A stretch of 64,000 nt of DNA from assembly GCF_054482525.1 (NCBI RefSeq), contig NZ_CM137006.1; one strand, written 5' to 3'. Shown piece by piece: positions 9,480 to 60,820 of this stretch. The translations under genes and the position numbers were made by a program. Positions within the stretch are counted from its first letter, which is position 1; the number at the start of each line of letters is the position of its first letter. The notes under the pieces were generated by a model that ran no database searches, was not told the origin of the DNA, and saw nothing but the letters and a program-made list of their open reading frames with translations.

Positions 9480-10058
9480 TTACGCCTGATGATCCGGCTT
9501 TTTCTTCCCGCGCCGTTTCAGCCACCAGCGCACGCCTACCACCAGAACCACGACCAGAATCAACCAGACCCAGTGCTTCAAATGCTGGTCGAGATTGTGC
9601 AACCACGGTGCAATCACCTGACCACCAGCGTAACCGATAGCGGTAAAAATCAACGCCCAGGCAAATGCGCCGAGAATGTTCAGCGGCAGAAAGATTTTCG
9701 GCGGCAGCTGGCTGGCACCAATCAGCGTCGGGCCAATGACCCGAAAGCCATACATAAAACGCGTACCAATGACAAACAGATACGGATGGCGTTGGATAAG
9801 TTTCTGCGCCCGCTCAATTTTATCCTGATGCTTAGAGAAACGGCGTAATAGCTTGCCGCCAAACCGCCGCCCGCACAGATAAAGCACCTGGTCGCCAATC
9901 ATGCCGCCAAGCGCCACAGAAAGTACCACCAGCGGGAACTTTAATAGCCCCTGATGCGCCGCAACGCCTCCCAGCAAAGTCACGGTTTCACCTTCCGCCA
10001 GGCTACCGATCACCAGCGCGGCATAACCATATTGTGAGATGAGTGTATTGAGATCCAT
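9480..10058 (-). CDS. yohD: DedA-family inner-membrane protein YohD
   Basis: Start placed at MDLNTLISQYGYAAL (192 aa); the ORF-track start at 10145 is an upstream extension. Confidence 0.85.
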   Translation of the reverse strand: MDLNTLISQYGYAALVIGSLAEGETVTLLGGVAAHQGLLKFPLVVLSVALGGMIGDQVLYLCGRRFGGKLLRRFSKHQDKIERAQKLIQRHPYLFVIGTRFMYGFRVIGPTLIGASQLPPKIFLPLNILGAFAWALIFTAIGYAGGQVIAPWLHNLDQHLKHWVWLILVVVLVVGVRWWLKRRGKKKPDHQA

Positions 10059-49895: not shown

Positions 49896-50729
49896 TTATC
49901 GCATTATGCCCATAAAGCCATGCACACCCATATACACACCAACTAAGCCAATCAACAGACTGGAAAAATAGGGGGCGCGTTTAGCGAGAGTGTTAAATCC
50001 GCTCCAGCGTTTTGCGACCTGCTGAACGCTGATTGCTGCGCCAACGCCTACGGTGACCAGCGTTAACGCCAGGCCGATGCTGAAACTGACGACCAGTGTT
50101 GCGCCCAGTGTCAGGGCTTTCAACTGAATGCAAATCAACAGCACGGTAATTGCTGCCGGGCAGGGGATAAGGCCACCGGTTAAGCCAAATAACAAAATTT
50201 GCCAGTTGGTGACCTCTCTACCATCAAAGCGTCGTTTAATGTCATTGGCATGGGCTCGTGCATGAGCATCCTGATACTCCCCATGTTCGTGATGGTGATG
50301 ATGTCCATGGTCGTGGTGATCTTCGTGATCGTGATGATGATGGTGATGATGCTCATGATCATGCCCGTGCATATTCTCCAGCCAGTTGCGTTCGCCGCGC
50401 CAGGTACGCCAGAACATCCAGAACGCGGTGCCAATAATGATCACCGCGGAAATCAACTGGAGCCACGGTTCTGCTGATTGAGCAGTAAAGCGCTTACTGA
50501 TCACCATCCCGCCAAAGGCAATCAACCAGACCACCGCGGTATGCGAAATGGTTGCTGCCAGTCCGAGCATCACCGCCTGTTTAATGGTGCCTTTGATGGC
50601 GATGATAAACGCCGCCATCATCGTTTTTGAGTGCCCTGGTTCCAGGCCATGAAGCGCACCAAGTAAGATGGCGCTGGGGATGAAGAACCAGGCGTTTCCT
50701 TGCTGAAGAAGAGTGGTAAATTCGGTCAT
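49896..50729 (-). CDS. rcnA: nickel/cobalt efflux pump RcnA
   Basis: 277-aa membrane ORF with a histidine-rich loop (HGHDHEHHHHHHHDHEDHHDHGHHHHHEHG). Confidence 0.92.
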   Translation of the reverse strand: MTEFTTLLQQGNAWFFIPSAILLGALHGLEPGHSKTMMAAFIIAIKGTIKQAVMLGLAATISHTAVVWLIAFGGMVISKRFTAQSAEPWLQLISAVIIIGTAFWMFWRTWRGERNWLENMHGHDHEHHHHHHHDHEDHHDHGHHHHHEHGEYQDAHARAHANDIKRRFDGREVTNWQILLFGLTGGLIPCPAAITVLLICIQLKALTLGATLVVSFSIGLALTLVTVGVGAAISVQQVAKRWSGFNTLAKRAPYFSSLLIGLVGVYMGVHGFMGIMR

Positions 50730-50849: not shown

Positions 50850-51122
50850 ATGTCTCATACCATCCGTGATAAACAGAAACTGAAAGCGCGTGCCAGTAAG
50901 ATTCAGGGCCAGGTCGTGGCGCTCAAGAAAATGCTCGACGAGCCGCACGAATGCGCTGCAGTTTTACAACAGATTGCTGCTATCCGTGGCGCGGTAAACG
51001 GTCTGATGCGGGAAGTGATTAAAGGTCATCTGACGGAACACATCGTTCACCAGGGGGATGAGCTAAAACGTGAAGAAGATCTGGATGTCGTTCTGAAGGT
51101 GCTGGATTCTTATATCAAATAA
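50850..51122 (+). CDS. rcnR: Ni/Co-responsive repressor RcnR (CsoR/RcnR family)
   Basis: 90-aa [24 protein letters not shown]...; recalled identity to RcnR. Confidence 0.9.
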
Positions 51123-51210
51123 TTTATTAACGCTATTGTAAAACTGCCGTTTTTCCTCGTTTACAACGGGTGCGCTGGACATTACCATCCTCCTCTGCGA
51201 TTTATCATCG

Positions 51211-51292
51211 CAACCAAACGACTCGGGGTGCCCTTCTGCGTGAAGGCTGAGAAATACCCGTATCACCTGATCTGGATAATGCCAGCGTAGGG
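51211..51292 (+). repeat. attL: left copy of the 82-bp direct repeat (thiM riboswitch aptamer segment)
   Basis: Identical to 59101-59182. Confidence 0.8.
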
Positions 51293-51375
51293 GGCCAAAA
51301 TAGTCTTGAAAATTATGTGGTTGTATCTCTTTTTGACCATAAATCATGCTGTTAAGGTACAAAAAGGGGTCGTTT

Positions 51376-52683
51376 ATGAGGTCAAGAACTCTCCCATACA
51401 CATTTCAGCGAAACGGTAATTACTATCTACAAATCCGGCTTTCGGATGGTCGGATATACAAAAAATCACTTTTTACTGACAGTTATCGCGAAGCATCGGC
51501 GTTGATGATTGGCCTTACTCCGCACATTCCTTTCGTTAAATCACTCGCTACTCCGTTGCCGCAATTTAATAAGTTTGTTTCAAACTTGATCGCTTCGTCA
51601 CGTAACGTAATGATTCCGTTGCCACTCCCTCAGCAATTGAACAATATTTCTAAAGAAGTTTTGCAGCTTCAACCACCAGCCAAACCGGAAAAGGTACTAA
51701 CACTTGCTGATGCGTGGGCTATGTACAAGGAGGAAAGAGGTCGAAATTGGACAAAATCGATCTCAATAGCAAATGAGCGTTATATGGAGGTATTGCTTGT
51801 TGTCTTGGGAAAAGAAACAGACGTAACGGCAATCACCAAACAAGATATTAAGCGAGTAATGGAAACTGTCGAAAACTTACCAAAGCGTGTAGTGCAACCG
51901 TATAGGTCAATGACTATTCAGCAACTAATCGAATGTGATGATGTGCTGCCAGAGGATTTAGTTGGTGCTGAGGCTGTACATAAGCACCTTAAAATCTACA
52001 AATCGTTATTCAAAACATTTCTGACTGAAAACAAAGATATTCTATCTAAGTCTCCGACTGATGGAATAGTAGCGGCACCATCCAAAGCTAGGTTTGGTGC
52101 ATACAGTGCAGCAGAAATGAAAAAATTTGTAGGATGGGCACTAAAGCAGCCTGATGGATGGCAGAAGTGGATCACTTTGTTGTTGGCGTACACAGGAGCC
52201 AGAAGAGGTGAGATTGCTAAACTGGAGAAGTCGCAGATCAAATTTGATGAAGATAGCCAGCGGCACTATCTTCTGATCGCGGAAAGAAGGCTGGGTAAAA
52301 CTGAGAATGCTACAAGACAGGTAGTGATTCATCCCAAACTGATTGAGTGGGGGTTTCTGGATTTTGTTAACCGCCAATGGAAAGAGAAAATCTTTTCGGA
52401 AGTCTCAGGTCGAAATATGTCAAAGATAGGTAAAGTTCTTTCAGATGTTCGTGATCAGCTTGATATTCCTTATCTTGATGATTATGGGCAGCGGCGCTTG
52501 GTGCATAGTTTCCGGCATACTATGATTTCTACTTGTTTAGCTGGTTGGGTGAGTAATTTGGCGCATCTGCAACAGGTGGTAGGTCATGAAAAGAGTGGAG
52601 TAGGGATTACCCAGCGTTATCTGCACACATTCCCACTTTCCACCGTTTGTTATGTGATCGATGGTCTTTGTTGGGAGACTTAG
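51376..52683 (+). CDS. int: tyrosine site-specific integrase
   Basis: ATG at 51376 preceded by SD aaaagggg; C-terminal catalytic block HSFRHTMISTCLAGW...GHEKSGVGITQRYLH (R, H-x-x-R, Y). Confidence 0.85.
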   Translation: MRSRTLPYTFQRNGNYYLQIRLSDGRIYKKSLFTDSYREASALMIGLTPHIPFVKSLATPLPQFNKFVSNLIASSRNVMIPLPLPQQLNNISKEVLQLQPPAKPEKVLTLADAWAMYKEERGRNWTKSISIANERYMEVLLVVLGKETDVTAITKQDIKRVMETVENLPKRVVQPYRSMTIQQLIECDDVLPEDLVGAEAVHKHLKIYKSLFKTFLTENKDILSKSPTDGIVAAPSKARFGAYSAAEMKKFVGWALKQPDGWQKWITLLLAYTGARRGEIAKLEKSQIKFDEDSQRHYLLIAERRLGKTENATRQVVIHPKLIEWGFLDFVNRQWKEKIFSEVSGRNMSKIGKVLSDVRDQLDIPYLDDYGQRRLVHSFRHTMISTCLAGWVSNLAHLQQVVGHEKSGVGITQRYLHTFPLSTVCYVIDGLCWET

Positions 52684-52811
52684 TTATTCGTGTATCCTTC
52701 TTAGTGTATAACCAGCTAATAATTTGTAGATTTTTATTGTCTGAGATCAAAAATTTTCACAACTAATTTACAATAATAACTTAAGATGAATTTAGGCTTA
52801 GTGAGTCTTCT

Positions 52812-53537
52812 ATGGTTAAAAATTTAGGCAAAAAATACAAGTATGGCGATCAACCGATAAGAGCTATTACCATACAGATAATTGCTAATCAGTTTGGTGG
52901 GGCTGCAACGGCTAAGCAGGTAGATGATTATCTTAGAAAGCTATTTCCATCTTATAAAGATAATACTTGGCTCAATTTAATTGCTAATACAGTTAATTGT
53001 AAGCGGAGCTACTGGAGTTTCAACAAAACTGCCCGACGAACTGATGATGTAACTCATCGGCATCATAAGTATGACCGATTGTTCAAGCGTGGAAATATTT
53101 TTGAAATCTATCAACCATCTGTGCACGGTATTTGGGAATTATACCAGGATTTAGAAGGGATGTGGCGTTATCGTCAAGTAAAATCGGTTTTCGAAGAAGC
53201 TGTTGAGACGGCTGCAAAATTATCTTCAGTGGAACGAAAGCAAATTTTAGCGACAGAAAGTAAAATCCCGGAACTAATCGAAGTAACAACACGAGTTTAT
53301 AAACGAAGCCCATATGTAGTTGCTGAAGTTCTTTTGAGAGCAAATGGAAAATGTCAATATTGTAAGCGAGATGCTCCTTTTCTAAAGGAAGATGGTACTC
53401 CATTTCTAGAAGTTCATCATATTGAGTGGCTTTCAAAGGGGGGGGAGGACTCTGTGGAAAATGCTATTGCATTATGTCCTAATTGCCATAGACAAGCCCA
53501 TTATGGCGATCTGACATTACTACCTGTTAATAAATAG
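52812..53537 (+). CDS. McrA-like HNH endonuclease (candidate type IV / modification-dependent restriction or defense nuclease)
   Basis: C-terminal CQYCKRDAPF...LEVHHIEWLSKGGEDSVENAIALCPNCHRQAHY closely resembles the recalled McrA HNH region; N-terminal about 190 aa unrecognised. Confidence 0.65.
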   Translation: MVKNLGKKYKYGDQPIRAITIQIIANQFGGAATAKQVDDYLRKLFPSYKDNTWLNLIANTVNCKRSYWSFNKTARRTDDVTHRHHKYDRLFKRGNIFEIYQPSVHGIWELYQDLEGMWRYRQVKSVFEEAVETAAKLSSVERKQILATESKIPELIEVTTRVYKRSPYVVAEVLLRANGKCQYCKRDAPFLKEDGTPFLEVHHIEWLSKGGEDSVENAIALCPNCHRQAHYGDLTLLPVNK

Positions 53538-53614
53538 GCTTGATGAAAGTTCTATTTCTATATTTTTCAATATACAAATTTCCCCAAAAACGGCGTGAAT
53601 ATCACGCCGATCAA

Positions 53615-53962
53615 TCATACTTCAGAACACATACTCAATGTGTAAACAGCCATCTCCCCATCGGGATTAGAAGGGCGTAATACAAATATCGGTATACTGC
53701 CATTGTCAATGTATGTGGCTGCAACCCCTCCGTCAGGTGTAGCATACATCTTTGCGATGCTTTTTTGACCTACAAAATCAAGTCTCCAAGTTTTACCGCC
53801 AAGATTTATGGTCATTTTTTTATCTTGTATATCAAAAGTTGAATCTACAGAAACTTTCTGACTTCCCGAGTCAATATGACCTTCCTGTATTGCTTTACAG
53901 GAAAAGGTTGTGGCGTGGCCCATCACTGGAATTAACAAAGCGGCAAATACTAGTTTTTTCAT
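53615..53962 (-). CDS. hypothetical secreted protein
   Basis: Start placed at MKKLVFAALLIPVMGHA (signal peptide); divergent from the XRE-family gene. Confidence 0.45.
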   Translation of the reverse strand: MKKLVFAALLIPVMGHATTFSCKAIQEGHIDSGSQKVSVDSTFDIQDKKMTINLGGKTWRLDFVGQKSIAKMYATPDGGVAATYIDNGSIPIFVLRPSNPDGEMAVYTLSMCSEV

Positions 53963-54072
53963 TTGTCTCCCTTGGTGTGTCAAATGGATGGTGATGCTAA
54001 TAATACATGATTGATTCAAAATGTCACGATTAGTGCGTGGTTAATTGGTGCGTCAAATTGCATCTTTGTGCC

Positions 54073-54537
54073 ATGCGAAAGAATCTGAGATACCTTTTTG
54101 GACAACGAGTAAAAGAGTTCCGTATAGCTATTGGCTTAAGCCAAGAGGCCTTTGCAGATCGGTGTGGTTTTGCACGTAGTTATATGAGTCGAATTGAGCG
54201 TGGTTGCTCTAATGCATCTCTTGATGCAATTGAGGTTCTGGCTGACGCTTTGCGTATTGAGCCTTGGCAGTTACTGGCTTCTGATTCAAGGAAACCTGAT
54301 GATCAGGAGGTACTTGTTCCTTATGCTGCAGATGGGTCGTGTTTTCATCCAGGATTGGCAAGTACTCGCGATGGTTCGTTTAGAGTAGGGGAAAAATCAG
54401 CCCAGAAACGTTTCAGTTCGTTCAATGAAGCTCTCGAATACCTTCGTGGAATGGAAACCGCGAAGTGGCGTAGGCCTAATGCTAGTGGTAATTGGGGAAT
54501 TGTATCTGCGGTTAAATGGGATCGACTGAATCAATAA
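54073..54537 (+). CDS. XRE-family helix-turn-helix transcriptional regulator with C-terminal extension
   Basis: N-terminal HTH (LRYLFGQRVKEFRIAIGLSQEAFADRCGFARSYMSRIERG); start could also be 54037. Confidence 0.6.
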   Translation: MRKNLRYLFGQRVKEFRIAIGLSQEAFADRCGFARSYMSRIERGCSNASLDAIEVLADALRIEPWQLLASDSRKPDDQEVLVPYAADGSCFHPGLASTRDGSFRVGEKSAQKRFSSFNEALEYLRGMETAKWRRPNASGNWGIVSAVKWDRLNQ

Positions 54538-54703
54538 GATATCAGTAATTTTCGGGCCACTCCACAAGGCAATAAGTGGCTTAGTGGTGATTATCGAAGG
54601 GGAATACAAGCGAGCACCTAGGCACCATTGCAAGAACCGCTCAACGCTGAGATCAGCAAGCCCCGATTTTTGCCGACCGTCCCTGTCAAATATCAAGGAG
54701 GCA

Positions 54704-55255
54704 TTACGCCACCTGCTCTTTCTTGATACGTTGCACCGTCTGCGTGCTGACACTGAAATCTTTTGCTACGCTCCGAATTGAGCCACCATTCGCGAGAGCG
54801 GCAGCAATTCCCGCTCGATCAATTGCTTTTCCATTACCACGTTTTGCTATACGTCCAGCGGCCTTGGCTGCGGCGATCCCTTCACGTTGACGCTCAAGCA
54901 TCATTTCACGTTCCATTTGTGCCACTGCTGCAAGAACTGTGAGCATCATATTCCCTGCGGGAGAGTTCTTTCCTGTCTTAAAGTCTTCTTTATGGAAATG
55001 CACAGACACGCCGCGCTTTGTTAATTGCTCTACAGTTGCCAGAAGGTCGGCTGTATTACGACAAAGGCGATCAATACTATGGACGTGTAACACGTCACCC
55101 TCCCGCACATAGTTCATCATTGCCTCAAACTGTGGGCGCTGAGTGTTCTTGCCTGACGCTTTATCTTCAAAGACTTTATCAAGAGTTACTCCTGCTAATT
55201 GACGGTCTGTGTTTTGTTGCACAGTCGATACCCTAATGTATCCAATATTAGCCAT
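54704..55255 (-). CDS. small serine recombinase (resolvase/invertase family)
   Basis: N-terminal catalytic motif GYIRVSTVQQ (Ser nucleophile) and C-terminal HTH; 183 aa. Confidence 0.8.
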   Translation of the reverse strand: MANIGYIRVSTVQQNTDRQLAGVTLDKVFEDKASGKNTQRPQFEAMMNYVREGDVLHVHSIDRLCRNTADLLATVEQLTKRGVSVHFHKEDFKTGKNSPAGNMMLTVLAAVAQMEREMMLERQREGIAAAKAAGRIAKRGNGKAIDRAGIAAALANGGSIRSVAKDFSVSTQTVQRIKKEQVA

Positions 55256-55741
55256 CTTCTTTTTTCTTCTGTATTGATTTGTGTGTAGTGATTATTGAAC
55301 GTGTTGATTAGGTGTGTAAAGTACTTTTTTCACTACGAAATTCGAAGTTTTTTAGTGTGGTGATTTAGCCTGCCTTATCACTACACTTCTTGCATGAGAA
55401 TCATGTAGTTACATTTTGGTAAAATTAGCAAGCTATTAAATTGTGTGTTTATTTTGAAAAAATAATTTTTGTTGCATTAAAGAAAACTTGTTCGACAAAT
55501 AATAGGTTGATTTTTGATCAATAATTTCTGATAGTGCTCTGTAAGCCGCATTACACAAGGCGCAGCGAAAGTGATGTAAAAGTGAAGAAAGCTAACATTG
55601 CACTTTTAAACTACTTTTCATTGAATTTTTTAGTATGGAATTACACAGGAATAAGTTAGGGATATTCTATGATTTACACAGGGAATATAGGGGGATTATG
55701 GTATTACACAGAGTGAGTGCTATGTGATGATTGGTAGTAAC

Positions 55742-55850
55742 GGTAGGTCACTGTGAACTAGGGGGGTAGGTCACTGTGAACTAGGGGGGTAGGTCACTGT
55801 GAGCTAGGGGGTAGGTCACTGTGAACTAGGGGGTAGGTCACTGTGAACTA
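55742..55850 (+). repeat. iteron array (5 direct repeats of about 22-24 bp), candidate replication origin
   Basis: ggtaggtcactgtgaactaggggg repeated five times head-to-tail, flanked by AT-rich DNA and further ttacacag / gtgtaatt motifs. Confidence 0.7.
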
Positions 55851-57106
55851 CAATAAGACTATAATAAGACTATTAATAAAACTATATTAGATTATTAATT
55901 AGATCATAATAATAATATTCTTTATATCTATATATATATGATCTTTTGCCTTCCGGCGTTAGCTTCACTCTCTGGCAAGCAGCCTTACTCCGCTACCTTT
56001 CGGGCTACGTTGGCTGGCCCGTTCCGCTCACACCGAAAGCAAAGCGTTACTTTCTTCGTGTAACTTCGTTGGCGGTAACGCCCACGAAGGAATACTATTG
56101 CGCTGTGCGCAGTAAGAGTAATCACCTAACCAATCATCTGATTGCTTACGTGTTAACTCTCTCTAACTCTTAATTACCCTCCTACATTTAATAACTCTCG
56201 TTATTCTCTGTAGTTGTGTAATTACTCGAAGAGAGAGCGGCTAAAGCTCAATTACACTCTGCTTTCCTCGTGTAATTTCACTAAGCCTCAATACAATTTC
56301 ACTTCCTACATTCTGTAGTCGTGTAATTGTTTTCGGTGGAAAAGCCAGAGGCGACACCGAAAGAGAATTCTGATCTTATTAATCTTATCTATCTTAGTTA
56401 TCTTACTTACTTTATCTACTTTATTATTAATAATAGCTTTATAAGCTCTCTGTGTAGCTCTCTGACGCAAGAAACAGAGTTCAGGAAGGGAATCACCTTA
56501 GAAAAGTGTTCTTTGCGTCATAATGTGTTTTATGAAGGATTCAGAGGTGTTTCATAACAGAGATGTATAGAGGATACTTTAGGTAATTAAAAATAAGGGG
56601 TCTAAATGCTTCTCTAACAGCATTAAGCAGGGTAGAGAATGGAAACCGCTTTGCCTACATATATAAACTCACTACAGGGCTTTACAGAGCGTTTTATAAA
56701 GTGACTCTCTGTTTTATATCTACCATCACCTTTTCATATACCTAACAAATACAAAATAAGCCCCTTAAATAAGCCTCTGGCGAGCTAAACAGCCATTACA
56801 TAAGAGAATGTATTGCTTTTATCAAAACCTCGTTAGAACGCGTTTTAGAGCGTTTTAGCGGATAATGAAGAATAGCACTACACAGGAGAGCACGAATTGC
56901 TAAGAAAAAATGTAACTACATGAAAAAGATCAGATTTTTTGTGAAAAGGTATTGACAAACGTCTCTTTCTGTGCAATAATAGGTATTAGAGGGACAGGAA
57001 TAGATTCTTATCCTCTAAATAATTAAACCAATGCACCGCACTTTGAAGCCCAAGGCTTGTAAGGTGTGTTTTTTCTTTTAACCAAATAGAATAAGGAGGC
57101 TAATTA

Positions 57107-57295
57107 ATGAAATATTTTACTCCACAGGATGTAGTAGAAGCCTGGAAACGTGGTGAGATCAACCGCTTTAAAGTAAGGATGTATAGAAACACCGCTCGCC
57201 GTTGTGGTTATCCAGAGCGTGAAAAATGTTTTGACGATGCACTAAAAATTATTGATGAACTGCGTAAAGCTGAGAAAGAAGCAGAGAAAAAATAA
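57107..57295 (+). CDS. hypothetical small protein (62 aa)
   Basis: ATG preceded by strong SD aaggagg; first of four co-directional genes each with a strong SD. Confidence 0.45.
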   Translation: MKYFTPQDVVEAWKRGEINRFKVRMYRNTARRCGYPEREKCFDDALKIIDELRKAEKEAEKK

Positions 57296-57317
57296 TAGAC
57301 AAGAGAAGGAGAAAACT

Positions 57318-57485
57318 ATGAGCGAAACTAAGAAACCAATTCCGCGCACTTACCTACACGTTGACCCTGAAATCTTCAAGGTTTTATTTGCTGAAGCCAA
57401 GAAAAGGCAAATTATGGTCAGTGATTTGATGTTAGAAATCATTACTGAAGCAGCAGAGAACATCAAACAAAAAAAGGGTAAGTGA
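57318..57485 (+). CDS. hypothetical small protein, possibly ribbon-helix-helix DNA-binding (56 aa)
   Basis: ATG preceded by SD aaggag; below the ORF-track cut-off from this start; RHH call is weak pattern-based inference. Confidence 0.4.
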   Translation: MSETKKPIPRTYLHVDPEIFKVLFAEAKKRQIMVSDLMLEIITEAAENIKQKKGK

Positions 57486-57536
57486 TCCTCATTCACTTTA
57501 GTAGCGCATTAAGCGTGATTTATAAGGAGATTTTTA

Positions 57537-58226
57537 ATGATTAATCAACTAACTTTTACAAAACACTATGACACGTTTGATAATGTATCAAAGATTTATT
57601 CTGATAAATTCCCTCAAGGAAAAGATTTAGATCTATTACATATTGTGCTTTATTTTCGATTCCTTAGTTATCAGGAAAACAACCTTAATTGTTATGAAAG
57701 TCACGAAACATTAGCTAAGATTTTTAAGTCTTCAGCGTCAACAATTAAACGTAAGATAAACGATCTTAAAGAGATGGGATTATTAGAAACATCCCCACAT
57801 CCTGATCCGTATATTTCATCTTTGATTTACAATGCTCTCCCTCTCACAGATGCACATATTACTCCCCCAGGAGAATCATCACTCTCTGATCTTTCTGAGG
57901 CAGAAGAAGCACAGGAACAACCTAAAGGCCATAAACAGCCTTCTTTTGATGTTCTTGATGATTGGGATACGCCTTTACCCTGGGAGACGGAAGAAACACC
58001 TGTTTCATCAAGTGAAAAAGTAGCTAATGATAATGAGGAGGATGTGTTAGAGAATTTTGCCTCTCTTATCATCCAGGAGAAACACACAAGAACAGGAGGA
58101 GCATCATTTATTGAGTTTGCAAATTCACTAGCTTGTAGATACGGGCTAAAACGACCAAATGGTATTGAGGCATATTTTTCTAAGAATTACCCAAATATAT
58201 ACGATGACTTTGATATTCCATTTTAA
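57537..58226 (+). CDS. putative winged-helix DNA-binding / replication-initiator-like protein
   Basis: 229-aa ORF with SD aaggag; N-terminal HTH-like segment and acidic C-terminus; lies downstream of the iteron array. Confidence 0.4.
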   Translation: MINQLTFTKHYDTFDNVSKIYSDKFPQGKDLDLLHIVLYFRFLSYQENNLNCYESHETLAKIFKSSASTIKRKINDLKEMGLLETSPHPDPYISSLIYNALPLTDAHITPPGESSLSDLSEAEEAQEQPKGHKQPSFDVLDDWDTPLPWETEETPVSSSEKVANDNEEDVLENFASLIIQEKHTRTGGASFIEFANSLACRYGLKRPNGIEAYFSKNYPNIYDDFDIPF

Positions 58227-58237
58227 TAAGGAGGGTT

Positions 58238-58483
58238 ATGATTCAATATTTAGTAAAAAATCAAGTAGACAGAATTCAGTGTAATGACACAGGAAAACGC
58301 ATCTACGAGACACTTGTTTACCTCTATAAAGGAAAGCCAACACCGCTAAAATATAGCGATGTGTTACATCGAGCAGGTTGCTCTGAGTCAGGTTTAAAAT
58401 TCTGGCTGAAACAGCTATCAAATTTCGGTGTTATTGAAATGAAAGAGCTGTCTTTTTCTACATTCAACCTCAAGAAGTTATAG
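58238..58483 (+). CDS. hypothetical small DNA-binding-like protein (81 aa)
   Basis: ATG preceded by SD aaggagg. Confidence 0.4.
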   Translation: MIQYLVKNQVDRIQCNDTGKRIYETLVYLYKGKPTPLKYSDVLHRAGCSESGLKFWLKQLSNFGVIEMKELSFSTFNLKKL

Positions 58484-58648
58484 AAAATAGAATTCATCTA
58501 TTCCACGCTCTAATTCTATTTCTCTGTTTAATATAAAAGGAAAACATTATTATGGTAATAGCTATGTGGTGGTTGTTGTTTTTTATGCTCGTAGAAACAT
58601 ATGCAAGTAAGTCTGGAAAACAAAAATAATATATTGATGATTTGTTTT

Positions 58649-58888
58649 TTATAACTTCGTGGTGTCAAGTCCAGCAGCTTTGAGTCGCTCGGTAAGATTT
58701 CTCATTTTGCTGAACTCTGTACCAAAGCTGGCTTTAAGTCCTACACCTTCACAAAACTCTTTTGCCGTAACCTTTTTCAGATGGTCAGCATATTTGATCA
58801 TCTGGAGGTGCATTTCCATCGTTTGGCTATTTCGTGGTGCGCTGCTAATGGCTTGCTTAATGTTCTCGTAGATCTGGGTTTCTGTCAT
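58649..58888 (-). CDS. hypothetical small HTH-like protein (79 aa)
   Basis: 79-aa ORF convergent with the four-gene module; possible HTH (VTAKEFCEGVGLKASFGTEFSKM). Confidence 0.35.
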   Translation of the reverse strand: MTETQIYENIKQAISSAPRNSQTMEMHLQMIKYADHLKKVTAKEFCEGVGLKASFGTEFSKMRNLTERLKAAGLDTTKL

Positions 58889-59100
58889 TTTTTATCTCAC
58901 CTATCAAATTTAGATAAATAATATAAATTAGCAAATTAAGATAATCAATAGTTTTTATCATCTGAATGATAGATGTTAAATGTTTCTTTTTCATTTCTGA
59001 TATGGGGTACAAAATGGGGTACACAGAGAAGAAGCAATTAATGGAGGCGAGCTTGCATCTGCAAGCCACTTCCCCTAAGCTGGCACAAAATATAGAGATT

Positions 59101-59234
59101 CAACCAAACGACTCGGGGTGCCCTTCTGCGTGAAGGCTGAGAAATACCCGTATCACCTGATCTGGATAATGCCAGCGTAGGGAAGTCACGGACCACCAGG
59201 TCATTGCTTCTTCACGTTATGGCAGGAGCAAACT
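59101..59234 (+). promoter_or_regulatory. thiM TPP riboswitch (thi-box aptamer plus expression platform)
   Basis: Sequence cgactcggggtgcccttctgcgtgaaggctgagaaatacccgtatcacctgatctggataatgccagcgtagggaagtc... matches the E. coli thiM riboswitch from memory; ends at the thiM start codon; the first 82 nt double as attR. Confidence 0.85.
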
Positions 59235-60023
59235 ATGCAAGTCGACCTGCTGAGTTCCGCGCAATCTGCGCACGCGTTACACCTTTTTCACCAACATTCC
59301 CCTCTTGTGCACTGCATGACCAACGATGTGGTGCAAACCTTTACTGCCAATACCTTGCTGGCGCTCGGTGCATCGCCAGCGATGGTTATCGAAACCGAAG
59401 AGGCCAGTCAGTTTGCGGCTATCGCCAGTGCGTTGCTGATTAACGTTGGCACGCTGACGCAGCCACGCGCACAGGCGATGCGTGCCGCCGTTGAACAGGC
59501 AAAACGCTCTCAAACACCCTGGATGCTTGATCCAGTAGCGGTGGGTGCACTCGATTATCGCCGCCGTTTTTGTCTGGAACTTCTGTCTCATAAGCCAACC
59601 GCCATACGTGGTAATGCTTCGGAAATCATGGCATTAGCTGGCGTTGCTAATGGTGGACGGGGAGTGGATACCACTGACGCCGCAGCTAACGCGATACCCG
59701 CTGCACAAACACTGGCACGGGAAACTGGCGCAATCGTCGTGGTCACTGGCGAGATGGATTATGTTACCGATGGACATCGTATCATTGGTATTCACGGTGG
59801 CGATCCGTTAATGACCAAAGTGGTAGGAACTGGCTGTGCATTATCGGCGGTTGTCGCTGCCTGTTGTGCGTTACCAGGCGATATGCTGGAAAATGTCGCA
59901 TCTGCCTGTCACTGGATGAAACAAGCCGGAGAACGCGCAGTCGCCAGAAGCGAGGGGCCAGGCAGTTTTGTTCCACATTTCCTTGATGCGCTCTGGCAAT
60001 TGACGCAGGAGGTGCAGGCATGA
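59235..60023 (+). CDS. thiM: hydroxyethylthiazole kinase
   Basis: 262-aa [23 protein letters not shown]...; recalled identity to ThiM. Confidence 0.95.
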
Positions 60024-60820
60024 AACGAATTAACGCTCTGACGATTGCCGGTACTGATCCGAGTGGTGGTGCGGGGATTCAGGCCGATCTTAAAACCTTC
60101 TCGGCACTTGGCGCTTATGGTTGCTCAGTGATTACTGCACTGGTGGCGCAAAATACCCGTGGCGTACAGTCGGTGTATCGCATTGAGCCTGATTTTGTCG
60201 CCGCCCAGCTCGATTCGGTGTTCAGCGATGTGCGAATCGACACCACTAAAATCGGTATGTTGGCGGAAACCGATATTGTTGAAGCGGTGGCAGAACGGTT
60301 GCAACGTTATCAGATCCAAAACGTGGTACTCGACACCGTTATGCTGGCAAAAAGCGGCGACCCGCTGCTTTCACCTTCGGCGGTTGCTACGCTGCGCAGT
60401 CGATTATTGCCACAGGTTTCATTAATAACGCCAAACTTGCCCGAAGCTGCTGCCTTGCTCGACGCGCCACACGCGCGCACCGAACAGGAAATGCTGGAAC
60501 AAGGGCGATCGCTGTTGGCGATGGGCTGTGGCGCAGTGCTAATGAAAGGTGGTCATCTGGATGATGAACAAAGCCCGGACTGGCTGTTTACCCGCGAGGG
60601 TGAACAACGGTTTACGGCACCGCGCATTATGACCAAAAACACCCACGGCACTGGTTGTACACTCTCTGCGGCGTTGGCTGCACTACGCCCGCGCCATACA
60701 AACTGGGCAGACACCGTCCAGGAGGCAAAAAGCTGGCTTTCATCGGCGTTAGCCCAGGCCGACACGCTGGAAGTTGGTCACGGTATTGGTCCGGTTCACC
60801 ACTTCCACGCCTGGTGGTGA
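60020..60820 (+). CDS. thiD: hydroxymethylpyrimidine / phosphomethylpyrimidine kinase
   Basis: 266-aa ORF; 4-nt overlap with thiM. Confidence 0.95.

Follow-up and report, generated by a model that had tools for sequence, protein, structure and literature searches.

Between rcnR and the thiM-thiD operon, the 64-kb window of DNA analysed here (64,000 nucleotides of contig NZ_CM137006.1, assembly GCF_054482525.1) carries a 7.9-kb island flanked on both sides by the thiamine pyrophosphate (TPP) riboswitch aptamer of thiM. How can an element use a riboswitch as its attachment site, and what becomes of the operon that the riboswitch controls? On the evidence below, the island is very probably a member of a family of small (~5–13 kb) tyrosine-integrase elements of the Enterobacterales whose attachment site is the DNA of the thiM TPP aptamer.

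Duplication of the thiM aptamer at the ends of the island

A repeat search of the window revealed an 82-nt direct repeat, at 51211–51292 and 59101–59182, with 100% identity between its copies and ~7.8 kb between them; chance recurrence of an exact 82-mer within 64 kb is excluded. The GC content was 0.31–0.46 within the island versus 0.50–0.55 in the flanks, in agreement with the initial annotation, made from the sequence alone, which had described an exact 82-bp repeat bracketing AT-rich DNA between rcnR and thiM. That annotation had also equated the repeat with the thi-box aptamer of thiM and proposed a riboswitch as the attachment site, and both copies indeed scored above the gathering score (54.3 bits) of the Rfam TPP riboswitch model RF00059. 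The right copy (59104–59200) reached 71.2 bits; native AAGUC closes its helix P1, and thiM follows after an expression platform that is likewise native. The left copy (51214–51309) reached 61.3 bits, with only three of the five P1 pairs formed and the 3′ strand of P1 made of island DNA (GGCCAAAAUAGUC). An Rfam scan of 48–62 kb detected no RNA besides these two. Comparison with the K-12-type site bore out the native flanks assigned to the two sides: the K-12-type rcnR–thiM spacer lies left of the attL copy, and the K-12-type thiM leader, identical to that of K-12 downstream of the aptamer, lies right of the attR copy. The integrase gene, int, directly adjoins the left aptamer copy.

Empty sites, occupied sites and the element family

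Both empty and occupied sites, which the initial annotation had expected, were found by megablast of 51123–59300 against 5,426 complete Escherichia coli genomes. The flanks were matched in 5,424 of these, and at least 80% of the island in 64, the copy of SCU-102 being identical. The great majority of the remaining matches, as sampled, consisted of a 288-bp joined match corresponding to an empty site, and a contiguous rcnR–thiM junction with a single 82-bp copy, whose absence would have refuted the initial annotation, occurs in thousands of E. coli genomes. The K-12-type empty site comprises rcnR, one riboswitch and thiM, with the 88-bp spacer as the only upstream DNA.

Integrase homologues with 74–100% nucleotide identity were present in 221 complete E. 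coli genomes, and all 226 matches were chromosomal, none being on a plasmid. All eight integrase loci that we opened (TB06052, EC20-72C-1, MRE162, A37, 33-6, PCN033, 1517k and CE-O153H30) lay between two annotated TPP riboswitches at the rcnR–thiM site. A profile of five integrases found 15 loci among GTDB species representatives in 11 named genera, ten of them enterobacterial (Lelliottia, Enterobacter, Erwinia, Citrobacter, Silvania, Atlantibacter, Pantoea, Franconibacter, Pseudenterobacter and Kosakonia); one of the contigs was labelled as a Flavobacterium metagenome-assembled genome. A TPP match at the Rfam threshold lay just upstream of the integrase in 10 of the 15 loci outside E. coli, and in loci L009, L020, L021 and L023 an aptamer copy was visible by eye; inspection of L017 showed none, and L022 is an internal gene fragment only. 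The distance from the aptamer copy to the int start codon was ~68 nt in most loci outside E. coli. The exact junction GGATAATGCCAGCGTAGGGGGCC was found in 47 metagenome contigs, and a junction identical to the base (GCGTAGGG followed directly by GGCC...) lay beside homologous integrases at more than 60 loci in many genera with differing cargo.

The window island (int identity 99.7–100%) was present in strains with differing thiM, thiD, rcnA and yeh alleles, and one version of it carried a swapped helix-turn-helix (HTH) operon, indicating both spread and module exchange. Many attL copies were preceded by the right end of another element (L002, 12366–12902; L010, L011, L015, L046, L051 and L063), and such right ends are, judged by their arrangement, tandem arrays or stacked remnants at the riboswitch. 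TB06052 carries an O157-type remnant followed by a complete second island. At L020 (Franconibacter) and L021 (Pseudenterobacter), around 9840–10000, integrases of 72–84% identity are also located 3′ of an aptamer copy; there the riboswitch identity ends two bases earlier, after GCGTAG, and the int leader is unrelated to that of the main family. These two loci seem to represent a sub-lineage of their own, with a left arm of another type.

Probable crossover site and proposed restoration of the riboswitch

The crossover was mapped by comparing attL with attR in 20 loci. All of the differences fell in repeat positions 1–55, which run from the 5′ leader through P3 into the junction, as far as CCCG(C/T)TGA. 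From CCTGA(T/A)CTGGATAATGCCAGCGTAGG on the two copies were identical, and positions 56–81 never differed in intact elements. The attL copies were host sequence on the left and element sequence on the right, and the attR copies were element sequence on the left and host sequence on the right. This pattern argues for strand exchange within positions 56–82 (51266–51292 and 59156–59182), and we infer that exchange takes place in these last ~27 bp, which are the DNA of the P4/P5 hairpin. Positions 56–82 form an imperfect inverted repeat around ATAATG. An inverted repeat around a short spacer is the usual core of a tyrosine recombinase, and parallels the stem-loop cores in tRNA genes.

Of the whole 82 bp first taken as the attachment site, the last ~27 bp thus stand as the probable recombination core, the rest being a gene-restoring copy; positions 1–55 appear to be the element's own version of the aptamer's 5′ two-thirds. 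Elsewhere in the family the element copy and the host copy differed at up to 14 positions, and the repeat is 82 bp long in the window because there the two are identical. The element-borne P3 variants were compensatory (CCCTTC..GAAGG versus CCCCATC..GATGGG) and the 5′ strand of P1, GACTC, was invariant, which argues that the element rebuilds a foldable riboswitch ahead of thiM. On integration, the 5′ copy of the aptamer brought by the element would be fused to the P1 3′ strand, expression platform and thiMD of the host, and a complete riboswitch would be retained. The junction of the circle, attP, is expected to read ...TATAGAGATT + 82 bp + GGCCAAAATAGTC.... A ~17–20-bp terminal inverted repeat was considered as a pair of core-type integrase sites and rejected, its arms being ~100 bp apart and outside the region of identity with attB.

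Several points weigh against this account. The position of the crossover is drawn from polymorphism patterns that gene conversion could blur, and locus L032 has the host-type P3 in both att copies. An exact search for the attL junction found none in 2.9 million IMG/VR viral contigs, and a terminal-overlap test of the 47 metagenome contigs gave no convincing circle. Neither an excised circle nor an empty-site revertant or a transfer event was seen, and excision, re-integration and transfer between cells are predicted. An internal repeat in L049 was considered as a circular form and rejected because it looks like an assembly artefact.

Could the 82-bp repeat instead be a target duplication or local segmental duplication flanking unrelated foreign DNA, and not an att site of the integrase? 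Formation of the repeat by the integrase is deduced from sequence comparison, which gives this reading some room, but we consider it extremely improbable. The same junction recurs to the base at more than 60 loci beside homologous integrases with different cargo, and where attL and attR differ, they show the host-left/element-right arrangement typical of site-specific recombination. No transposase or transposon terminal structure was found (PHROG and NCBIfam), and had the repeat arisen by transposition, such an enzyme and insertion at varying sites would be expected; neither was observed. The comparative data effectively refute it.

Expression of thiMD at occupied sites

Because the riboswitch lies in the 5′ untranslated region of thiM, the native thiM promoter must be in the 88-bp spacer between rcnR and the aptamer. 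After integration this promoter DNA would stay at attL and point into int, which would be transcribed through the aptamer copy, and thiMD would be transcribed from a conserved promoter-like motif at the right end of the element (TTGnnn-17-TAAnCT). The sequence TTG(C/T)nn-17-TAA(G/T/C)CT was found in 24 distinct right ends of elements, each time equally far from the aptamer. It agrees with ~6 of the 12 consensus positions, is absent from the output of the consensus scan, and its conservation could reflect protein-binding sites of a recombination arm, all of which counts against a promoter. As alternatives, a sigma-54 promoter reading of CTGGCA was rejected for lack of the −12 element, and TATAGA (59091–59096) was rejected as the right-end −10 element because it has a poor −35 partner and is part of an inverted repeat, TTGCAT-17-TAAGCT being conserved in position instead. 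A literature search found no mapped thiM transcription start.

Evidence on the operon came from truncated elements. The right end (the HTH_73 gene plus spacer) was present in 550 genomes, versus 221 for int. In O157:H7 an integrase-less remnant is all that is present, a single riboswitch is found and the K-12-type spacer is missing, the match starting at query position 89. The E. coli B lineage carries an IS1-truncated remnant without int or attL, whose right-half genes are as in MRE162; this B island and L006 share WP_001268667, WP_000700140, WP_000858919, a DUF6998 gene and an HTH-like gene beside the riboswitch. In T7 Express / E. coli B (L075, 857–9452), IS1 borders the left-truncated island, yehA–D and rcnRAB are missing, and the right half of the island directly joins the apbC side to the thiM riboswitch; EcoBLMcrX corresponds to the DUF6998 gene, in a second cargo position near the right end. 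The parent of E. coli B is a vitamin B1 prototroph, and only deletions reaching thiM gave a B1 requirement (supplement of PMC5487053), implying that thiMD functions with element-derived upstream DNA. Most likely, the thiM operon still works with the element present, and the element probably supplies the promoter.

The same distribution bears on whether the island is an immobile, domesticated defence island, kept for the expression of thiMD from its right end, with intact-looking ends that are merely young. Integrase-less remnants outnumber intact elements and are fixed in O157:H7 and E. coli B, and no circular form was seen among the IMG/VR or metagenome contigs searched. The window element, however, has two identical repeats, a full-length int and conserved motifs in each arm; moreover, this island is found on different chromosomal backgrounds, and other hosts have closely related left arms. 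We therefore hold domestication to be possible but on the unlikely side.

Complementarity between the ends of the element

For 16 elements the junction of the circular form was reconstructed. Approximately 30 nt just upstream of the aptamer (right end) were complementary to a stretch ~21 nt downstream of it (left end), and the left-end stretch ends in invariant TCTTTTTG. Cognate ends gave −9.9 kcal/mol versus −8.0±0.6 kcal/mol for permuted ends, with 9 of 20,000 permutations as low. In the closing helix of 23 pairs, 88.6% of the cells were paired, versus 43–53% with the partners slid, and four pairs changed on both sides. TCTTTTTG was also complementary to the Shine–Dalgarno (SD) region of int (CAAAAAGGG), 92% paired over 30 left arms and mostly invariant. 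In the predicted fold with the right-end leader, a long helix surrounds the canonical aptamer and the SD region is open; with the host (attL) leader or a short leader, the SD region is sequestered.

These folds suggest, very tentatively, a model in which each end of the element contributes half of an RNA switch, so that only the circle has the whole switch and only there is int translated; we think it rather doubtful. In the circle, a transcript from the right-end promoter would start near CAAAAAG and cross the aptamer copy, and its leader (CAAAAAG..AGAGAUU..) would pair with the left-arm ..AAUCUCUUUUUG in a ~20-bp helix closing the aptamer. CUCUUUUUG would then be held away from the SD region of int, so that Int would be made. 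In the integrated state the leader would belong to thiM, int would lie behind the host thiM promoter and a leaderless aptamer, and CUCUUUUUG would pair with the SD region and switch Int synthesis off. The captured aptamer may also make the control of int thiamine-responsive.

The complementarity can also be read in terms of DNA, as inverted repeats made up of sites that bind Int, IHF or Xis. CAAAAAG occurs three times, TATCATGAGATTG resembles an IHF site, and the arms of attP are expected to hold Int, IHF and Xis sites in both orientations; in addition, the compared end sequences are phylogenetically related. The pair-breaking transitions speak for RNA. On the int-sense strand, G·U exceeded A·C in the closing helix (12 versus 2 pair columns), in the anti-SD helix (43 versus 4 cells) and in a small hairpin (20 versus 1 cells), an excess expected for RNA and not for DNA inverted repeats.

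Other repeats were noted in the arms, both of which carry GGGGTACA/GGTACA repeats. An inverted repeat of 22 nt, 82% complementary (51334–51355 and 53793–53814), encloses int and the HNH gene together with part of the gene for the secreted protein, and may be due to chance or be a recombinase site. Directly 3′ of the aptamer copy, most relatives have a perfect palindrome, GGCC(A/G)AAATT(T/C)GGCC (for example L006, 13967–13981), with a compensating A–T to G–C change (13 versus 10 sequences); the window element (51293–51307) is without it (GGCCAAAATAGTCTT).

Gene content and defence cargo

The features of the locus are collected in Table 1. The integrase beside attL, HNH nuclease, signal-peptide protein, XRE regulator, serine recombinase, five iterons and small open reading frames (ORFs) listed in the initial annotation are all present. 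Two of its labels hold in part. The nuclease had been called McrA-like, which applies to its C-terminal HNH domain, the PADLOC mREase_IV match spanning residues 149–232 only, but not to the N-terminal 148 residues, which had no match in PHROG, NCBIfam or PADLOC. Four small DNA-binding genes had been proposed; there are four small plus-strand ORFs, but HTH signatures were detectable in only two. The PF00589 domain of the integrase covers residues 260–418, and the motifs ARRGE, HSFRHT, GHEKS and RYLH were invariant across five aligned homologues. Outside the island, imperfect tandem repeats in rcnA (50290–50363) encode a histidine-rich loop (HDHEHHHHHHH...), which is ordinary for rcnA.

Table 1. 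Features of the rcnR–thiM locus in the window
Feature	Position	Strand	Basis
rcnR, left host flank	50850–51122	+	ORF; annotated rcnR in identical locus L001
Candidate native thiM promoter, TTTACA-17-TACCAT	51160–51188	+	Consensus scan; within 88-bp rcnR–aptamer spacer
attL copy of 82-bp repeat (TPP aptamer minus P1 3′ strand)	51211–51292	+	Repeat search, Rfam
Putative recombination core in attL, P4/P5 hairpin DNA, CCTGATCTGG-ATAATG-CCAGCGTAGG(G)	51266–51292	+	attL/attR differences
Element left arm and int leader	51293–51375	+	Sequence, conservation in 30 relatives, pair counts, folds
Left-arm inverted-repeat arm, TGGTTGTATCTCTTTTTG	51318–51335		
Left-arm anti-SD-like sequence, CTCTTTTTG	51327–51335		
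Left-arm GGTACA, arm-type site candidate	51356–51361		
int SD region, CAAAAAGGGG	51360–51369		
Tyrosine integrase, 435 aa	51376–52683	+	phrog_1 9e-27; PF00589; RefSeq annotation
HNH nuclease, type IV (modification-dependent) restriction candidate	52812–53537	+	PADLOC mREase_IV 1.3e-23; PHROG HNH families
Small protein with N-terminal signal-peptide-like segment	53615–53962	-	phrog_35183 (unknown function); annotated in L001
XRE-family HTH regulator, resembles restriction control (C) protein	54073–54537	+	PADLOC Control_protein 5.7e-17; phrog_8
Small serine recombinase, resolvase/invertase type	54704–55255	-	phrog_125 2e-61
Gene-free region, 1.85 kb, many short repeats	55256–57106	.	ORF list, sequence
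Five iterons, 22–23 bp (GGGGGTAGGTCACTGTGAACTAG)	55739–55855	+	Repeat search
Very AT-rich repeated stretch beside iterons, candidate DNA-unwinding element of origin	55856–55945	.	Sequence
Strong promoter-like site TTGACA-17-AATAAT facing 57107–58483 operon	56952–56980		Consensus scan
62-aa ORF, no family match, possible excision/regulatory factor	57107–57295	+	ORF; annotated in L001
55-aa ORF, DNA ~99% identical to gene of virulent phages inny and muut	57318–57485	+	
229-aa winged-HTH protein, weakly Rep-like	57537–58226	+	phrog_270 'replication initiation protein' 1.9e-9; HTH_36 4.8e-5
81-aa ORF, no family match	58238–58483	+	ORF; annotated in L001
HTH_73 (HTH-like) protein, conserved right-end gene	58649–58888	-	PF24718 1.1e-30; phrog_30666
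Element right arm	58889–59100	+	Sequence; motif position in 24 right ends; complementarity to left arm
Right-arm GGGGTACA, two copies	59004–59011, 59016–59023		
Right-arm palindrome, CTTGCATCTGCAAG	59052–59065		
Right-arm promoter-like TTGCAT-17-TAAGCT	59053–59058, 59076–59081		
Right-arm inverted-repeat arm, overlapping first attR bases	~59087–59106		
attR copy of 82-bp repeat (5′ part of thiM riboswitch, element-borne up to crossover)	59101–59182	+	
Complete thiM TPP riboswitch (aptamer to 59200, native expression platform to thiM ATG)	59104–59234	+	Rfam 71.2 bits
thiM-thiD operon, right host flank	59235–60820	+	ORFs; annotation in L001

The gene following int varies between elements. The slot holds an HNH gene in the window and in EC20-72C-1 (the latter also with AIPR), GmrSD in 33-6, SIR2 and an ImmA/HigB set in MRE162, a Hachiman-like HamA with helicases in A37, and an AAA ATPase in TB06052. 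No methyltransferase gene was present within the island (annotated locus L001). Judged by gene content, the position after int is a swappable anti-phage slot, holding in the window a predicted type IV restriction candidate.

The rest of the element is more uniform. The order in the diverged loci was int, a variable block, a small serine recombinase and a gene-poor region, and most of the five had a small-ORF/HTH operon and an HTH-like gene beside attR; a 'recombinase family protein' was annotated in all five diverged islands opened. Gene-free gaps comparable with that of the window measured ~2 kb in L008, the closest relative, and ~1.3 kb in L005. ECD_02033 of E. coli B is a homologue of the HTH_73 protein (PMC5487053). 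The serine recombinase, the iterons with their AT-rich stretch and the HTH/Rep-like operon suggest that an excised circle can replicate and resolve its multimers, and the gene content fits an integrated small replicon. Three further results weigh on the other side: no excisionase or AlpA was found among the small ORFs (Pfam, PHROG and NCBIfam); the matches of the Rep-like protein were weak and its gene lies 1.7 kb from the iterons; and plasmid and phage collections gave only ~30–34% identity over the N-terminus of this protein. A nucleotide search of the same kinds of collection with the replication module returned short fragments only.

Parts of the backbone have relatives elsewhere. A stretch of ~242 bp (57306–57547) including the 55-aa ORF is 99% identical to virulent phages inny and muut (Stephanstirmvirinae, ~147 kb; the inny match is at L024, inny 120157–120781), pointing to recent DNA exchange between the island family and lytic phages; the adjacent phage gene (367 aa) shares 34% identity with the N-terminus of the Rep-like protein. 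The module of iterons, noncoding DNA and HTH operon (55510–58601) occurs at another chromosomal site in E. coli with 86–94% identity (match H2, APEC O1 296915–300222; also H3 and H5), suggesting a replication-like module common to islands that use different sites. The 397 bp of noncoding DNA by the serine recombinase gene (55257–55653) are 94% identical to a 166-kb conjugative E. coli plasmid (NZ_CP126938.1, 42779–43176), and might serve as a cis site, of the res type or another. Just upstream of the iterons (55641–55720), TTACACAG(G/A) occurs three times at ~30-bp spacing, and downstream of them (56060–56335) (C)GTGTAA(T/C)T occurs four or five times.

What kind of element is this? The initial annotation had favoured an integrated mini-plasmid or satellite-like element over a prophage. 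The gene content without structural genes agrees with this, and the replicon or satellite label is to be read as a description of gene content only. No virion, terminase, primase, relaxase or coupling-protein gene was found among the 10 island proteins (PHROG and NCBIfam), a search that a relaxase-less oriT would escape. One possibility is a phage satellite that is excised on helper infection, replicates from the iterons and is packaged in helper capsids, its defence cargo blocking competing phages. The small size, the integrase and the variable anti-phage slot right after int are as in P4-like satellites and phage-inducible chromosomal islands (PICIs), conjugation genes were absent (PHROG and NCBIfam), and the sequence shared with inny and muut implies recent exchange with phages. 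Yet the same searches gave no sign of AlpA, a primase/helicase, a terminase small subunit, or a capsid-size or cos/pac feature, the attL junction was absent from IMG/VR, and phage collections matched short island fragments only; we regard a satellite as fairly unlikely.

The iterons, the adjacent AT-rich stretch, the weakly Rep-like HTH protein, the conserved resolvase-type recombinase and the 397 bp shared with a conjugative plasmid would instead suit an integrated mini-plasmid or integrative mobilizable element, replicating from the iterons, resolving multimers by the serine recombinase and mobilized by conjugative plasmids via an unrecognized oriT. We give this a similarly low probability: no relaxase or mobilization gene was found by the same searches, plasmid homologues of the Rep-like protein reach at most ~30% identity over half its length, and the integrase matches in E. 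coli were chromosomal in 226 of 226 cases.

Relation to known elements and earlier reports

Islands at tRNA and tmRNA genes with tyrosine integrases of the P4-integrase type have int beside the att site and a recombination core in the DNA of an RNA stem-loop. The thiM elements resemble them in these respects, in the long att identity, which is due to the element carrying a replacement for the displaced part of its target, and in the tandem arrays and decayed remnants at one site. They differ in having as target not a stable RNA gene but a riboswitch aptamer in a cis-regulatory mRNA leader; in that the 5′ part, and presumably the promoter, is replaced and not the 3′ end; and in that the copy beside int is an aptamer without its closing helix. 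The dusA-specific integrase islands attributed to Farrugia and colleagues (2015) reportedly enter dusA at its 5′ end, which they replace with one of their own. They share integration at the 5′ end of a transcription unit and the replacement of 5′ sequence and upstream signals by the element, but their target is protein-coding, whereas here it is a ligand-sensing RNA whose fold must be kept.

P4-like satellites and PICIs are said, in work by Rousset and colleagues (2022), to carry defence hotspots, and are likewise small integrase-bearing elements with a fixed position for interchangeable anti-phage systems. P4-like satellites differ in that no alpha primase, psu/sid/delta or cos was found here (PHROG and NCBIfam), and PICIs in that no alpA, pri-rep or packaging genes were found and the junction was absent from IMG/VR contigs. 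In circle-junction control, as in insertion-sequence junction promoters, Tn916 and Pcirc of ICEclc, the joined ends create or connect a promoter. If the RNA switch is true, expression of int would likewise depend on joined ends, but here the proposed RNA helix between the ends would free the ribosome-binding site of int.

The locus itself has been catalogued before. Fomenkov et al. (2017; PMC5487053) described a genomic island, next to thiM in E. coli B, carrying EcoBLMcrX, which is at the same locus and of the same family as the window element but is a left-truncated remnant behind IS1 with another type IV enzyme as cargo. The supplement of Hochhauser et al. (2023; PMC10121019) has an 'rcnR-thiM' entry, an RM_type_IV island measuring 7,956 bp and containing 8 genes, with mobile genetic element (MGE) type 'None' and outside the numbered hotspots; this entry is the window island. 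The word 'riboswitch' is absent from both papers, and neither speaks of att repeats at this locus; 'integrase' was searched for in PMC5487053, where it is absent from the main text and its mentions in the supplement concern other loci. A literature search of incomplete coverage found no report of an integrative element using a riboswitch as attB, and the riboswitch attachment site was not found described. As judged from sequence, the element would thus be a tyrosine-integrase island of the gene-restoring type that targets a riboswitch aptamer and restores a 5′ end and, probably, a promoter, and it belongs to a widespread family with defence cargo.

Implications

Integration targets would include riboswitch aptamers besides tRNA and tmRNA genes, and for the same reasons, extreme conservation and built-in inverted symmetry. 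An element at such a site must rebuild a ligand-sensing fold and supply a promoter, and the compensatory P3 variants would reflect selection for the rebuilt fold. The RNA switch, if true, would let a mobile element sense its integrated versus free state in a new way. The ~27-bp attB, present in nearly every E. coli, could serve as an integration tool. The element family would act as a compact shuttle for anti-phage systems among enterobacterial genera. For the host operon, in about one-tenth of complete E. coli genomes, including O157:H7 and BL21/B, the thiM riboswitch is directly preceded by DNA that came from the element and is not ancestral, which matters wherever the regulation of thiMD is used or modelled.

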